From Candidatus Heimdallarchaeota archaeon (GTDB lineage: Archaea > Asgardarchaeota > Heimdallarchaeia > Heimdallarchaeales > Kariarchaeaceae): 32,000 nt of DNA. The notes beneath the pieces are model-generated. The model did no database searches and was not told the DNA's origin. It was given only the letters and a program-made list of their open reading frames with translations. The translations under genes and the position numbers were made by a program. Positions 21,586 through 31,203 of this stretch are shown in pieces (the stretch's first letter is position 1; every line of letters starts with the position of its first letter). The stretch is taken from positions 240,001 through 272,000 of the forward strand of contig JASBSB010000001.1 of the NCBI GenBank assembly GCA_030149205.1, read 5' to 3'.

Positions 21586-22779
21586 TTACTTTTCCTTAAG
21601 CTTAGATTTTAAAGCGTGTTCAACCCTTTCTTTGATAATGAGAGCAGGTATGTCATGCAAGGTTATATAAGAACGCCTCCCTCGTTTTCCTTCGCCTAAA
21701 GCTCTTACTTGAGCACTAACAATACCTAGGCGGGTTAATGTTTCTAAATACAGTCGAAACGACGCCTTAGCTTGTTTTGAGATACTAAATTCACTGCATG
21801 TTTCAAGATACTTAGCATATGCCTCGTTAATTGTTGTGTAGGCAATTCCAGTCCCAGAAGATAGAATTCTTGCAATTGCCAGAGCAACAATCAACTCATT
21901 TGGTTTTAAATCAGTAAAGACTTCAGGTCTCAATTCTGGATAAACTTCATTTTTGGCCGCTCTTACAAATTCTGGGTTTATTTGGGAAGCACCCTTTGAA
22001 TTTGCCATCATTCCACAACGTAACATAATTTCAATACCATGTCTTGCGTTGCCAGTTGCTGCTGCTATGTCAACAATCATCTCAAATACTTCTGGAGGAA
22101 CAACATTTGCAAAGAAACCCAACTTCCTTCTATATTCCAATATCTGTTCAAGTTGATCACGAGTGTATGGTTGTAAATTTAATTGGTCTTGCACTCTACC
22201 TGAAAGGTGTGCATCAAGCATAAGAGTCCAAGCTCTTCTTCTACTGATTATTATTAATGAAAGTCTACCGACACCTGGTTCAAAAAGTTCATTCATATGA
22301 ATAAAAGCCAATATATCTTCACCTCTTAGCATATCAGCTTCATCGATGATCAATACTATCCTTTTGTTCTCGCGTTTGAGCTTATTTGCCAACATTTCCA
22401 TTAATTCCTCATCACTAAATCCCCTACCCTGAATATGAAATCGATCAGTTGCTAACCGTCTAAGGATTGAAGTTTTGGTTCTAAAGGAATGACAGTTGAT
22501 ATAATGGGTCTCAAGACTAATTTTATTTGCAACAGAATAACTTTCTAAGTGTTTTGTCACATGTTTTGCCAGGGTTGTTTTACCTATCCCTGCATTTCCA
22601 ATTATTGCAATATTAACTGATACTGGTCTGAATGGGTCTAAGAGGATGGATAGTCCTTCTACGAGTCTTTGAGTTTCATCATCTCTGCAAGGTAATTCCT
22701 CAGGCACAAATTCGGGTGTTAGACTAAATCTATCTCGAAATACACTATCCCTATTATAATTATCAAAAAGATTCGACAT
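21586..22779 (-). CDS. cdc6: Orc1/Cdc6 replication initiator
   Basis: LTPEFVPEELPCRD, GNAGIGKT Walker A, YINC, IIDEAD Walker B, GNARHGI sensor II, C-terminal winged helix. Confidence 0.95.
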   Translation of the reverse strand: MSNLFDNYNRDSVFRDRFSLTPEFVPEELPCRDDETQRLVEGLSILLDPFRPVSVNIAIIGNAGIGKTTLAKHVTKHLESYSVANKISLETHYINCHSFRTKTSILRRLATDRFHIQGRGFSDEELMEMLANKLKRENKRIVLIIDEADMLRGEDILAFIHMNELFEPGVGRLSLIIISRRRAWTLMLDAHLSGRVQDQLNLQPYTRDQLEQILEYRRKLGFFANVVPPEVFEMIVDIAAATGNARHGIEIMLRCGMMANSKGASQINPEFVRAAKNEVYPELRPEVFTDLKPNELIVALAIARILSSGTGIAYTTINEAYAKYLETCSEFSISKQAKASFRLYLETLTRLGIVSAQVRALGEGKRGRRSYITLHDIPALIIKERVEHALKSKLKEK

Positions 22780-26182: not shown

Positions 26183-27571
26183 TTACTGAACAATAATTTC
26201 TTTACTAGGAAAAATCTCAGTTGACCAAGGATAATGTTCCATAATTGATTTCAGTACAGAATCAGCTTTCTCAACTTCTTTTGTATCACTATATGTTAGT
26301 ATTAAGGCTTTGCCACCTCTAGTTCGTTTTAATTTTTGATAAACTGTCTTAGTGGTCCTAACTAAATCAAATATTATTAGTTGATCTGCTTCTGGAATAT
26401 CTAAATCCCTCTCTCCAACATTTGAAAGAATTGCCACCATTTTAGATTCTGACTTCCTAAAGGATTCAAGTAACTCATTTCTTTTCATTTGTGGCACTTT
26501 TCCAGTTATAACGACATTTGATATACCCAAATTTCCAATCAATTGACTCAACCGCTCACAGGTACTAATATAAGAACAGAGAATTACAGATTTATGTGCT
26601 TCTTCTATCAAGAATTTTGTTGCGTGAAACTTTCCTGTGAAAATATTAAGCCATTGACCAGTTAAATCGATTCCTGAAGCCTTGAGGTGATAAATAACTT
26701 TATCACCTGGAAATGCCCATAAATACTTTCTGACAAAGTATAATTTGGACAACTTATTTCTTTCATCTTCATCAATCCTAGGATCCAGATGTACTGCAAT
26801 ATTAGAGTTAGTAGAATTTTCCATTTGAGTTTTAATCATTGCTTTCACTTGAAGAATCTGTTCTTCTAATAATGCAGAGAAGGAGATGATTGAGGGATCA
26901 GTAACATTAACAACACTTATTTCAGTTTTAGTCACATGATTGAAAAAATCTGTATCTAAGATAGAGTCCATTGATATAAATTTAGTATTGGGAATTAACT
27001 TTAAAAGTGAGTCAAGATCTTTTCGTTGTGCTAACTGAAATTTGTCCAGTACAAAGTGGTCATCCCTCAAAGTACCACTCATACCTATTACAACCTGATG
27101 ATGAAGCATGTTAAATAAGCGGTTATAAGGAACTTTAAGATAGTTCTGGGTTGACATCCTTCGAACAATTTGATCTACTTCGTTAATTATGATGACATCA
27201 AATTTATTAAAGTCACTGTCATGATCCTTTATGGTGTTATAGAAGGTCTGAGGTAAAGAAAGAATGATTCGAGATTTTTCAATTATATGCCTTCTAAATT
27301 TTGTGGGAATATTACTAGTTAGAAGACCTATCAATTCATTTGGTAGATGTTTGGACAAATAAGTGAAAGTTTCGTGAAGGCTTGTTGAAGCCTGTAATAA
27401 AAGTAAAATTTTGTCTCCTTCCAAATCATCAACCAGTTTCGTTTGAAGAAATCGCTTTCCAGCTCCACAATCAAGCTCGATTATCACATTTGAACCAGAG
27501 CTTCTATACCCTATTGTTTTGTCTAAAATTTGTTGTTGGTATTGACGTGGTGTGAAGGAGCTTAGAGCCAT
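26183..27571 (-). CDS. Hef/Mph1/FANCM-like SF2 helicase with non-canonical motifs and no nuclease domain
   Basis: TPRQYQ Q-motif, LDCGAGKR, LSLPQT, INEVD, IGMSGT, NVVITG, VGERDLDIPEAD, QKLKRT. Confidence 0.8.
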   Translation of the reverse strand: MALSSFTPRQYQQQILDKTIGYRSSGSNVIIELDCGAGKRFLQTKLVDDLEGDKILLLLQASTSLHETFTYLSKHLPNELIGLLTSNIPTKFRRHIIEKSRIILSLPQTFYNTIKDHDSDFNKFDVIIINEVDQIVRRMSTQNYLKVPYNRLFNMLHHQVVIGMSGTLRDDHFVLDKFQLAQRKDLDSLLKLIPNTKFISMDSILDTDFFNHVTKTEISVVNVTDPSIISFSALLEEQILQVKAMIKTQMENSTNSNIAVHLDPRIDEDERNKLSKLYFVRKYLWAFPGDKVIYHLKASGIDLTGQWLNIFTGKFHATKFLIEEAHKSVILCSYISTCERLSQLIGNLGISNVVITGKVPQMKRNELLESFRKSESKMVAILSNVGERDLDIPEADQLIIFDLVRTTKTVYQKLKRTRGGKALILTYSDTKEVEKADSVLKSIMEHYPWSTEIFPSKEIIVQ

Positions 27572-28754: not shown

Positions 28755-29291
28755 TCAAGATTGAAGGTGATTTTGTTCAAATTCTAAGTAACGTTTTTTT
28801 GAGCTCGTTCCACCGTATGCAGAATAATTTCCAAGCATCCCGTTCTCCTTGACCACCCTATGACAAGGGACTAAGATGGGAAGCGGATTTGATGACATGA
28901 CATTTCCTACAAATCTTGCATGATTCTTGGTTAAACCTGATTCAATTGCTAAGGATCGATATGAAATTACTGAACCAGGAGTTGAATTTTTCAGAGTTTC
29001 CATTACTAGTTTCTTCTTATCTGTTAAAAAGCTATAATCAATCTGGATTTCACCAGGATTATGTTTGGGTTCTTTTAAAACCGAGAAGAGTATATCTTCC
29101 AAGATTAGGTCTCTTTCTCCAAAGATAAGGTGAACATGGTCTTTGGTGATTTGCTCTATGCTTTTTTTCAAATTATCGAATGCCTGTTGTTTATCAGGTA
29201 TTGGAGTTGTTGTGGCTACAACTCCTTTATTGCTGTAGGCGTAATATACAAAATAATTTTGATATTCTCCGAATGAGTAGTTTAACTCCAT
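28755..29291 (-). CDS. ogt: Methylated-DNA--protein-cysteine methyltransferase (MGMT)
   Basis: PGSVISYRSLA, RFVGNVMSSNPLPILVPCHRVV (active-site PCHR), KRYLEFE. Confidence 0.95.
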   Translation of the reverse strand: MELNYSFGEYQNYFVYYAYSNKGVVATTTPIPDKQQAFDNLKKSIEQITKDHVHLIFGERDLILEDILFSVLKEPKHNPGEIQIDYSFLTDKKKLVMETLKNSTPGSVISYRSLAIESGLTKNHARFVGNVMSSNPLPILVPCHRVVKENGMLGNYSAYGGTSSKKRYLEFEQNHLQS

Positions 29292-29341: not shown

Positions 29342-30424
29342 TTAGGCTATTACAATAGGTTGATAAATCCCGCTTGTCCTAACACCTTTATCGAATCTTA
29401 CTAGAACCTTTGCAGATGACCTTTTACCAAAAGTTCTAACAACAGAACCCTTTATAACAGAATTTGTGTCAGGATAGGTGAGCTTGACCTTTTTCCCAAT
29501 TAACTCTTCTGGGCTATAACCATTGGAAAGTTTTACAATTAACGTGTTGGGATGAATCACCCTTTTACTTCTCCTATAGGATGAGCTTTGGCCAATCACT
29601 GTTCCTGTTCCAACAATACTTCGTGGTTTTGATTCAGTCTTCTTACCTTTGAGACCTCTTGCTCTAACTGAATGCTCCACATGTAATAAATCGTCATTAG
29701 TGTAGACCTCAACAACAGCCTTCTTCTTTTTGGGTTGAATAATAGCTTCTTTGCTGACCCTCTCTTTCTTGATAGGTTTTACTCCTTTCTCACGTTTTCC
29801 AGTTCTTTTGGCTTTAACTGCCTGTGGAGCTGTAGGTATCTCTCTTGTAATTTGATCTGCTTTTTTCCTTTGCTCCCTTCTAATGGCTCTTGCTTCTTTC
29901 TCTTCTTTGGATAATTTTCTAGCAGTAACCTTCCAGGTTTCTCTTTCAGATTTTGTGTCCTCATCAACAGTTTTTACATCTTTAAGATCCTTATCTGTAA
30001 CTTTGGTAACCTGAACACCTTTCTTTTTCTTTGAAAGGAAAATTTCATCCTCAGGAGGAGGAGCTACTGATTTTTTCTTTTTCTTAGGTGAAACCTTCTT
30101 TGGTTTTTCTTCCTTAGCTGGTTCTTCAGAAACCTCTTTTTTAACTTTCTTTTCTACAGATTTCTTAGGCTTTTCTACTGATGGTTCTTTGGAAACCACA
30201 TCTGCAGAAGTTTCAGGAACTACCACCTCAAATGCCTTTTCTTCTGTTGAAGAAACTTCTGCGGCATTTTTAATAATTTTTGAAGCTGTAGCTTTCCCGA
30301 TGCCTAAATTAATGATATCATCTAGTGTAGCCTTAGCAAGCTTTTCAGCACTTTCAAATCCACCGGACTTAAGTTTGTCACTTGTCTTTGGGCCAACACC
30401 CTTTACTTCACTTACATCGGTCAT
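29342..30424 (-). CDS. rpl35ae: Ribosomal protein eL33 (L35Ae) fused to an N-terminal helix-hairpin-helix domain and a long Lys/Glu-rich linker
   Basis: Residues ~272-360 match the L35Ae pattern (SYRR, HPNTLIVK, LIGKKV, KGSVVRTFG, VLVRFDKG). Residues 1-56 match an HhH pair (VKGVGPKTSDKL...LGIGKATASKII). Confidence 0.8.
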   Translation of the reverse strand: MTDVSEVKGVGPKTSDKLKSGGFESAEKLAKATLDDIINLGIGKATASKIIKNAAEVSSTEEKAFEVVVPETSADVVSKEPSVEKPKKSVEKKVKKEVSEEPAKEEKPKKVSPKKKKKSVAPPPEDEIFLSKKKKGVQVTKVTDKDLKDVKTVDEDTKSERETWKVTARKLSKEEKEARAIRREQRKKADQITREIPTAPQAVKAKRTGKREKGVKPIKKERVSKEAIIQPKKKKAVVEVYTNDDLLHVEHSVRARGLKGKKTESKPRSIVGTGTVIGQSSSYRRSKRVIHPNTLIVKLSNGYSPEELIGKKVKLTYPDTNSVIKGSVVRTFGKRSSAKVLVRFDKGVRTSGIYQPIVIA

Positions 30425-30492
30425 AAGTTCTCTGAAATTTTATTTCACGAGTTTTTTAAAAAAGGTATATTTTGATACGCGCTGTTTGATTG

Positions 30493-31203
30493 TTATTCTT
30501 CACCCAATCTTTCTTTCAAGTTTCTAATTATATCATCATTTCTAACCATTTTTTCCATGAAACTTTGTGACAACTCTCCCTGAATTCTCACGTTATCTTC
30601 TCTCTCAGTTTTAAGCGTTTCTTCTAATTCAGAAATTTTCTGTTTTAGTCTCTTTACATCATCCGAGGATCCAACCTGTTGAGAAATTTGCTTCAGAATT
30701 GTGTTGATATCTGTACCTTCTGGAAATTTAGCCTGAGCAATCAACTCTAAACTCTTCTTTTCTTGTTGGAAATGGGACTCCATTAACGATCTCTCATCTT
30801 TTAATCTCGACTCCAAATCACGGCGAACCGTGGCTTCATTTGCCAATGATTTTTTGAGTTCTCGCACTTCATCTGACAAGGCTTGAACATTTTCTTGCTC
30901 AATGGTTAGTGCTCGTCGAGCGCTATCTAATCGACTTTTCAGGTCTTCAATTGAGGCTGCTAAACTGTTATATATCCCAACATAAGAATTTATGTAATCC
31001 CTGATAAGCGGATGTAAAATTTCCCAATACTCATCAATTAAAGCCTCAAGTTCCTTATGTTCAACAGTTACACTGCCTTCTTTGTAAATTGCACGCTTTA
31101 AGGACTCAATATTAGTGTAAGGCTCATGTTCAGGGTAGAAATCAAATAACGATTTATTCTTTTTAGAGCGAAACATTACAAACTGAATTGTGTTTAATAA
31201 CAT
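30493..31203 (-). CDS. Hypothetical coiled-coil protein
   Basis: Long heptad-like E/K/R/L helices over roughly residues 60-236. Alternative ATG at 31176. Confidence 0.7.
   Translation of the reverse strand: MLLNTIQFVMFRSKKNKSLFDFYPEHEPYTNIESLKRAIYKEGSVTVEHKELEALIDEYWEILHPLIRDYINSYVGIYNSLAASIEDLKSRLDSARRALTIEQENVQALSDEVRELKKSLANEATVRRDLESRLKDERSLMESHFQQEKKSLELIAQAKFPEGTDINTILKQISQQVGSSDDVKRLKQKISELEETLKTEREDNVRIQGELSQSFMEKMVRNDDIIRNLKERLGEE

Follow-up and report, generated by a model that had tools for sequence, protein, structure and literature searches.

A homologue of ribosomal protein eL33 with a helix-hairpin-helix domain and a long N-terminal extension in a Heimdallarchaeia archaeon

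In a 32,000-nucleotide stretch of the Candidatus Heimdallarchaeota archaeon assembly GCA_030149205.1 (contig JASBSB010000001.1, positions 240,001 to 272,000 of the forward strand; hereafter the window), a gene on the minus strand encodes a 360-residue protein that ends in a homologue of ribosomal protein eL33 (L35Ae). One real and conserved reading frame unites a double helix-hairpin-helix domain, (HhH)2, a variable disordered spacer, a basic module and the eL33 barrel. We consider it close to certain that the protein is a real fused eL33 homologue, and the best explanation of the data is that it represents the large-subunit eL33 orthologue of this organism, equipped with a lineage-specific N-terminal extension of ~270 residues. 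To the reading in which a ribosomal eL33 carries a tethered nucleic-acid-binding arm we assign a rough probability of 0.7. The gene, its four parts and a stretch upstream of it are as follows (aa, amino acids; pLDDT, predicted local distance difference test; AF2, AlphaFold2).

29342..30424, minus strand: whole gene for the 360-aa HhH-spacer-basic module-eL33 protein, from the open reading frame (ORF) call and full-length orthologues at 40-59% identity.
30251..30424, minus strand: (HhH)2 domain, residues 1-58, with the G-h-G hairpins VKGVGPKT and LGIGKATA, from HHH_5, AF2, fold and PDB sequences.
30053..30250, minus strand: K/E/P-rich variable spacer, residues 59-124 (66 aa), predicted to be disordered (pLDDT 34-49, AF2).
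29642..30052, minus strand: conserved basic middle module, residues ~125-261 (~137 aa), from a 17-sequence alignment.
29345..29641, minus strand: eL33 (L35Ae) domain, residues 262-360, from Pfam, family profile, fold and alignment; its structural barrel, residues 272-360, corresponds to 29345-29611.
30452..30473, minus strand: A/T-rich TATA-like stretch (AAAATATACC TTTTTTAAAAAA), read from the sequence, 28-49 nucleotides (nt) upstream of the ATG in a 68-nt intergenic gap.

The frame runs through 360 codons without interruption to a stop codon at 29342-29344, and Met1 is the sole methionine of the protein, so that the single uninterrupted 360-aa ORF with one Met described in an earlier note on this DNA is borne out by both the ORF call and the Met count. 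At a local GC content of ~36%, we estimate the probability of 360 stop-free codons arising by chance at ~1e-11. Orthologues were aligned first as a set of seven and then as a set of 17, and lengths and charges were measured in 21 family members. Throughout these 21, the frame is maintained across spacers rich in in-frame insertions and deletions (indels), and in five of them Met1 is the only Met. Continuity across the linker was also checked at the level of the assembly: the source contig has even depth across the gene, and contigs from two other studies contain no indels relative to it over the parts that they cover. The TATA-like stretch would be compatible with transcription that begins close to Met1 and yields an mRNA with a short leader or none.

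We regard the C-terminus as truly eL33 because profile, fold and block alignment all point to eL33 chains. The Pfam hidden Markov model (HMM) Ribosomal_L35Ae (PF01247) aligned to residues 278-351 with 24.0 bits against a cut-off of 27 when the protein was searched, and reached 28.1 bits, above the cut-off, at the same locus in a six-frame search of the genome; the NCBIfam model PRK04337 (L35ae) gave 27.5 against a cut-off of 85. A family profile constructed from the C-terminal 99 aa of seven orthologues retrieved Pyrococcus furiosus eL33 (87 aa) from the PDB at E 2.8e-5, covering its residues 5-81, and PDB matches of this profile down to E 0.01 consisted exclusively of eL33 chains. In an AF2 model of the full protein built on the seven-sequence alignment, most of the barrel has a pLDDT of 83-92, apart from one block of 10 residues at 59. 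The top 50 Foldseek matches of this barrel in the PDB are all eL33, with a template-modelling score of 0.80 and 34% identity to the P. furiosus chain 9qf4_Bc, and structural superposition yielded Z-scores of 11.9 and 11.8 to the eL33 proteins of Thermococcus kodakarensis and P. furiosus, respectively (root-mean-square deviation 2.0-2.1 Å over 83 residues). The assignment of residues ~272-360 to eL33 in the earlier note is upheld by the profile and the fold.

The alignment with canonical short eL33 proteins preserves the signature blocks SYRRS, LIGKKV and GxV...G. The block corresponding to the signature G-x-V-x-x-x-HG-x-x-G-x-V-R-A-x-F-x-x-x-LP also aligns (GSVVRTFGKRSSAKVLVRFDKGVR), with H replaced by F, two residues inserted and LP not retained. 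The domain is strongly basic (isoelectric point (pI) 10.7, net charge +14; pI ~10-11 across the family), and it includes the best-conserved part of the protein, the barrel, with a mean column identity of 67% for the C-terminal domain versus 55% for the whole protein.

At the other end, the HHH_5 model (PF14520) aligned to residues 3-54 with 41.5 bits, above its cut-off of 27 (E 1.8e-10), and the (HhH)2 domain is modelled by AF2 with a pLDDT of 82-90. HMM, fold and hairpins thus agree with the HhH pair that had been read at residues 1-56. The residues of both G-h-G hairpins are invariant among seven orthologues, and because of this invariance the domain is probably functional. The (HhH)2 fold superposes with Z-scores of 10-11 on the N-terminal domain of RadA/Rad51, on AF1548 and on NusA AR2, and also matches the HhH region of the Pol-theta helicase. 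By sequence, its nearest PDB relatives are the RadA/Rad51 N-terminal domain (E 1.6e-5, residues 1-62) and the N-terminus of haloarchaeal eL32 (E 1e-4 to 4e-4). RadA models of NCBIfam match residues 2-66 only, and a Pfam scan of the protein found no RecA-type ATPase core after the HhH domain. The N-terminal domains of RadA/Rad51 are DNA-binding, and from the sequence relationship we infer that the domain studied here would bind duplex nucleic acid. The number of HhH copies per protein varies within the family: eleven members carry one, nine carry two and one carries four.

The region between the two end domains had been described as a charged, low-complexity linker of ~210 aa. Its polybasic runs and its K/E/P-rich stretch are indeed present, but only residues ~59-124 are of low complexity, and residues ~125-261 form a conserved module. 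In the spacer neither length (28-84 aa) nor net charge (-24 to +14) is conserved among the 21 members. The module (~135 aa), by comparison, has a net charge of +11 to +28 in every family member and contains 12 invariant and seven nearly invariant columns in the 17-sequence alignment, including the motifs KKK(K/R)GxQ, (T/G)WxV, ELSxEE, ITRxIPxxPxxVKA, KPxK and YY. When folded alone by AF2 on this alignment, it reached a pLDDT of 73.7 and a predicted template-modelling score of 0.28, with one long confident helix at residues 173-190 and the rest extended. We considered whether it could be a recognizable second ribosomal protein and rejected this idea: Pfam searches with 17 members returned no family at E <= 1, L13e included, a profile search of the PDB gave a best E of 1, and neither Foldseek with the AF2 model of the module nor the ESM Atlas returned a match. 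Judged from the model, the module would resemble those extensions of ribosomal proteins that become ordered only on rRNA.

We then asked how widely this architecture occurs. An exhaustive profile search of 1.84 billion representative sequences recovered ~19 full-architecture clusters at 50% identity, with lengths of 308-605 aa, plus fragments, all of the family to which the protein belongs; we assign this family to Ca. Kariarchaeaceae from the NCBI name on one member. A survey of 301 Asgard genomes was performed with the barrel profile, and examples from each group were read. It covers the comparison across Asgard genomes called for by the earlier note, and found long forms in a few groups and short ones in most other families:

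Own family (Kariarchaeaceae-type): open frames of 365-452 aa, E ~1e-45.
Second family of the order, including Heimdallarchaeum: HhH, P/K/A-rich linker and eL33, 218-281 aa.
Third family of the order: HhH-eL33 forms of 203-207 aa.
A family of another Asgard class: HhH-eL33 of 213 aa, which NCBI lists as '50S ribosomal protein L35ae'.
Another family of the same class (three loci): eL33 with a K/T/A/S-rich, low-complexity, histone-H1-like N-terminal tail of 60-130 aa and no HhH.
Most other Asgard families: frames of 97-130 aa, with some longer stop-to-stop frames.

Outside its own family, frames in the rest of the order measure 168-333 aa. The order contains long eL33 forms only and most other Asgard genomes short forms only, and the long protein takes the place of the canonical short eL33. 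Consistent with this, the gene is the sole eL33-like locus found by six-frame search of the source genome, which is 93.5% complete, answering the question of whether it is the only copy. No genome credibly combines a long and a short eL33; the one double hit comes from a 4.6-kb contig that is probably mis-binned, because its protein closely resembles that of another family. In one genus of the same class, neither PF01247 nor the family profile detected eL33 in 22 genomes, some of them 94-99% complete, reflecting either loss of eL33 or its divergence past recognition.

The long-form proteins are mostly named 'HhH protein' or 'hypothetical' in databases. For example, UJG44696.1 (218 aa) from the closed genome of Ca. 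Heimdallarchaeum endolithica is a 'hypothetical protein' at NCBI and an HhH-motif protein in UniRef. These other HhH-eL33 forms (UJG44696.1 and those of 203-207 and 213 aa) share the order HhH, basic linker, eL33 with the protein described here, and at both ends the domains of the long and short HhH-eL33 forms are homologous and collinear. They differ in having a single HhH and lacking the ~135-aa module, whereas the Kariarchaeaceae-type family has the module and one to four HhH copies. One ancient fusion appears to be the economical reading of this pattern; independent fusions could also account for it. The HhH extension on eL33, presented in the earlier note as without known precedent, is thus not peculiar to this gene, being fixed in its family and present in simpler form in Heimdallarchaeum and two other lineages. 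Full-text literature searches for eL33/L35Ae together with helix-hairpin-helix, Asgard or Heimdallarchaeia returned no description of an HhH-eL33 fusion.

Comparison with solved structures delimits what is shared and what is added. Archaeal eL33 (1SQR; 4V6U chain Bc; 9QF4 chain Bc; 6SKG chain Bf) has the same barrel as the C-terminal 89 residues, at 28-34% identity. It consists of this barrel alone (86-87 aa), whereas the present protein has ~270 additional N-terminal residues, the HG to FG change and a protein-level score below the Pfam cut-off. Extended eL33 chains of 132-157 aa have been solved in ribosomes of eukaryotes (Drosophila, 4V6W chain Cf, 157 aa; trypanosomatids, 132-144 aa), where an N-terminal extension accompanies the barrel; they show that the ribosome surface tolerates an extended eL33 N-terminus. 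The eukaryotic extensions are short (30-60 aa), and we know of no folded nucleic-acid-binding domain among them. RadA/Rad51, the best match of the (HhH)2 domain in both sequence and fold, differs by its recombinase ATPase core. The source genome encodes two separate RadA paralogues, each with two N-terminal HhH modules before the ATPase core.

The closest parallel in architecture is haloarchaeal eL32 (1JJ2 chain X and 1S72 chain Y, 240-241 aa; 9L94 chain Q), likewise a solvent-side ribosomal protein whose N-terminal (HhH)2 domain is attached through a charged linker. This parallel, already drawn in the earlier note, is supported by the PDB matches of the N-terminus and by the NCBIfam model of haloarchaeal eL32 (PRK12766), whose N-terminal part aligns to residues 2-105 with 27.9 bits against a cut-off of 239. 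Haloarchaeal eL32 has a different core (L32e) and only one HhH, and it lacks a conserved basic middle module. No L32e core was found in the present protein, in which only residues 2-105 match PRK12766 and the C-terminus is eL33, and the eL32 of the source genome is canonical, encoded by a separate gene and without HhH. Since eL32 touches eL33 in yeast and both proteins carry an N-terminal HhH, haloarchaea (on eL32) and the Heimdall group (on eL33) may present a like domain on the same side of the large subunit. Among the other HHH_5 loci of the source genome, namely the two RadA paralogues, a 778-aa frame, a 1086-aa frame and a 470-aa protein with four HHH_5 matches, no further ribosomal protein fused to HhH was recognized. 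The 470-aa protein (236123-237535, ~2.5 kb before the window start) has its four HHH_5 matches after an N-terminal region of ~140 aa and is not a ribosomal protein fusion.

The eL33 site has been described in some detail. In the yeast 60S subunit, eL33 is found on the face exposed to solvent, where it contacts eL6, uL13, eL32, rRNA domains I, II and VI and the expansion segments (ES) ES7 and ES39; it assembles early (PMC9700599). The RNA binding of eL33 is concentrated on helix 41 (H41) (PMC11354259). ES39 lies near uL13, eL14 and 'aL33'; some Loki- and Heimdallarchaeota have an enlarged ES39, and H1 is also near eL33 (PMC7594248). The 23S rRNA of the source genome measures 3219 nt (gene 255460-258678 on another contig) and, relative to the Rfam archaeal large-subunit model, carries a 61-nt insertion at the H98/ES39 site that comprises two hairpins on a junction. 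Like this insertion, a second one lies in the 3' part of the 23S rRNA: directly 3' of the conserved GGGAUAAC motif, a hairpin has ~3 nt of its apical loop replaced by 189 nt of A/T-rich sequence (fold z-score -3.1); this hairpin is probably H89 and the 189-nt insertion probably an rRNA intron.

Two neighbouring genes on the same strand flank the eL33 gene:

28755-29291, minus strand: ogt, encoding an O6-alkylguanine-DNA methyltransferase with the PCHR site present (PF01035, E 4.5e-20), 50 nt downstream of the eL33 gene.
30493..31203, minus strand: a 236-aa coiled-coil protein, directly upstream of the eL33 gene.

The earlier note correctly placed the gene just upstream of ogt, but the two do not form a conserved operon. 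An ogt homologue was found near the eL33 gene in only two other loci examined, in differing arrangements, and the neighbours in Heimdallarchaeum are instead a HerA-like ATPase/helicase and a peptidase; we therefore rejected ogt as a functional or operon partner. An Orc1/Cdc6 homologue (21586-22779, minus strand) and an XPB/Rad25-like SF2 helicase (26183-27571, minus strand) also lie within a few kb, and together with ogt they make up a loosely DNA-related neighbourhood that is not kept in relatives. The coiled-coil protein, for which searches found no family, occupies the same position, on the same strand and directly upstream of the long eL33 gene, in six other family loci (47-67% identity). 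It occurs in 40/41 genomes of the order, single-copy in most, and is non-adjacent in Heimdallarchaeum-type genomes. As it is also present in genomes without the middle module, we rejected it as a module-specific partner.

On the basis of these data we predict, with rather good confidence, that the protein is a genuine component of the ribosome, and we propose the following model for a ribosomal eL33 with a tethered arm. The barrel would be seated where eL33 normally binds, on the solvent side of the 50S subunit, at a site that in yeast is formed by H41 and the junction of domains II and VI, near uL13, eL32 and H98/ES39. The basic module, extended apart from one helix, would run along neighbouring rRNA in the manner of eukaryote-type ribosomal protein extensions. 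The 66-residue spacer would act as an entropic leash of ~6-20 nm by our estimate, allowing one to four (HhH)2 clamps to grip the sugar-phosphate backbone of a duplex rather than a fixed site on the same ribosome. Because the number of HhH copies (1, 2 or 4) and the length and charge of the spacer vary freely, avidity for a polymer would be a more natural property of such an arm than a fixed docking site, and because its closest HhH relatives, the RadA/Rad51 N-terminal domains, bind DNA, we favour a target off the ribosome. DNA, that is the nucleoid, would be the likeliest such target, and ribosomes or nascent 50S subunits would thereby be held near the chromosome. The choice of DNA over rRNA or pre-rRNA is tentative, and we would place it somewhat below even odds. 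The functions put forward in the earlier note, a tether to DNA, RNA polymerase or mRNA or an rRNA chaperone, are likewise only candidate roles. A broader proposal, in which Heimdall-group archaea leash ribosomes or assembling 50S subunits to chromosomal DNA through the (HhH)2 arm and haloarchaea have arrived independently at the same solution on eL32, is speculative and, taken as a whole, unlikely.

The alternative that survives best leaves eL33 on the ribosome and has the HhH arm and the module bind rRNA or pre-rRNA close to the eL33 site (H98/ES39, H1 or the 23S processing stem formed from H1), as a built-in chaperone of assembly or as a stabilizer of surface rRNA. The location of eL33 speaks for it: in yeast the protein joins the subunit at an early stage and links domain II to domain VI and ES39 (PMC9700599), and ES39 and H1 lie next to eL33 (PMC7594248). 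The middle module, being basic, extended and conserved, looks like an rRNA-bound extension, and the 61-nt two-hairpin insertion in the organism's own 23S rRNA sits at H98/ES39. This insertion, however, falls short of the >100 nt that defines a supersized ES39 (PMC7594248), and we dropped a supersized ES39 as an argument. The free variation of HhH copies and of spacer length and charge is likewise unexpected for a fixed docking site, and the kinship of the HhH domain with DNA binders points away from rRNA. Overall, we judge binding of the whole arm to rRNA to be improbable, though still a serious contender.

Several observations weigh against a ribosomal eL33 with a nucleic-acid-binding arm altogether. 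The L35Ae score of the protein remains under the Pfam gathering cut-off (24.0 versus 27), and the eL33 signature has diverged, with HG changed to FG and the LPG motif lost. The gene is not among other ribosomal protein genes in the window, and its neighbours are not conserved across families. The (HhH)2 fold also resembles NusA AR2, which is a protein-binding domain. Finally, because the eL33-less genus (22 genomes) belongs to the same class, eL33 may be dispensable or in flux in this class.

A second alternative is that this eL33 is no longer ribosomal and that its barrel has been reused in a protein of the nucleoid, of chromatin or of DNA repair. The divergence of the domain to below the Pfam cut-off and the sister genus without detectable eL33 would be in line with such a change, as would the basic, histone-H1-like composition and neighbours such as ogt here and HerA-like helicases in Heimdallarchaeum. 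In addition, the occurrence of eL33 in archaea is patchy and has been listed as unknown for Heimdallarchaeota (PMC9932298). Against this, no part of the protein is better conserved than the barrel, which has retained the eL33 blocks and a pI of ~10-11. Each genome has one locus (with one likely mis-binned exception) that stands in place of the short form of most other Asgard lineages, and the DNA-related neighbours are not conserved. We thus consider an extraribosomal role to be quite unlikely.

Less likely still is a third alternative, in which an eL33 of ~85 aa is produced from an internal start or by proteolysis and the long form is minor or has a separate role. Codon 276 is a GTG (Val276) that lies at the start of the barrel with a weak purine-rich motif, AGGA, 5-8 nt upstream, and an ATG is found at the barrel boundary in one distant lineage. 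The GTG codon is not conserved as a start, however: at position 276, three of the seven aligned sequences (two of the six orthologues) have V, and the remaining four have A, Y, R and K. No conserved internal Met was found near the barrel boundary in the 21 members, and the sequence comparison indicates that purifying selection clearly acts on the 270 residues before it. An assembly or gene-calling artefact joining two genes is effectively refuted by the recurrence of the same collinear architecture in ~20 clusters at 50% identity from many samples, closed Heimdallarchaeum genomes included, and by the contig depth and the agreement of the pieces from two other studies.

New in this analysis are the division of the linker into a spacer and a family-specific basic module, the presence of 1, 2 or 4 HhH copies, the map of eL33 forms across Asgard archaea, the neighbour relation between eL32 and eL33, and the negative result on ES39 size. 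A 2023 review listed eL33 in Heimdallarchaeota as 'distribution unknown' (PMC9932298); the fused, diverged genes are the likely answer to this entry and should be counted in ribosomal protein inventories and marker sets. The fusion, and the module within its own family, may also serve as rare-genomic-change markers for the systematics of Heimdallarchaeia.

The protein is best viewed as a case of a ribosomal protein to which a lineage has added a domain of its own. It is unusual for a core solvent-side ribosomal protein to bear a folded nucleic-acid clamp at the end of a long leash. The fusion has become fixed in the class of archaea nearest to eukaryotes, and this, together with a like domain on the adjacent eL32 of haloarchaea, points to an unrecognized function at this face of the ribosome. 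Interest in the protein would rise if the leash were to reach DNA, for the closest prokaryotic relatives of eukaryotes would then possess a ribosome-borne DNA anchor that couples translation spatially to their nucleoid.

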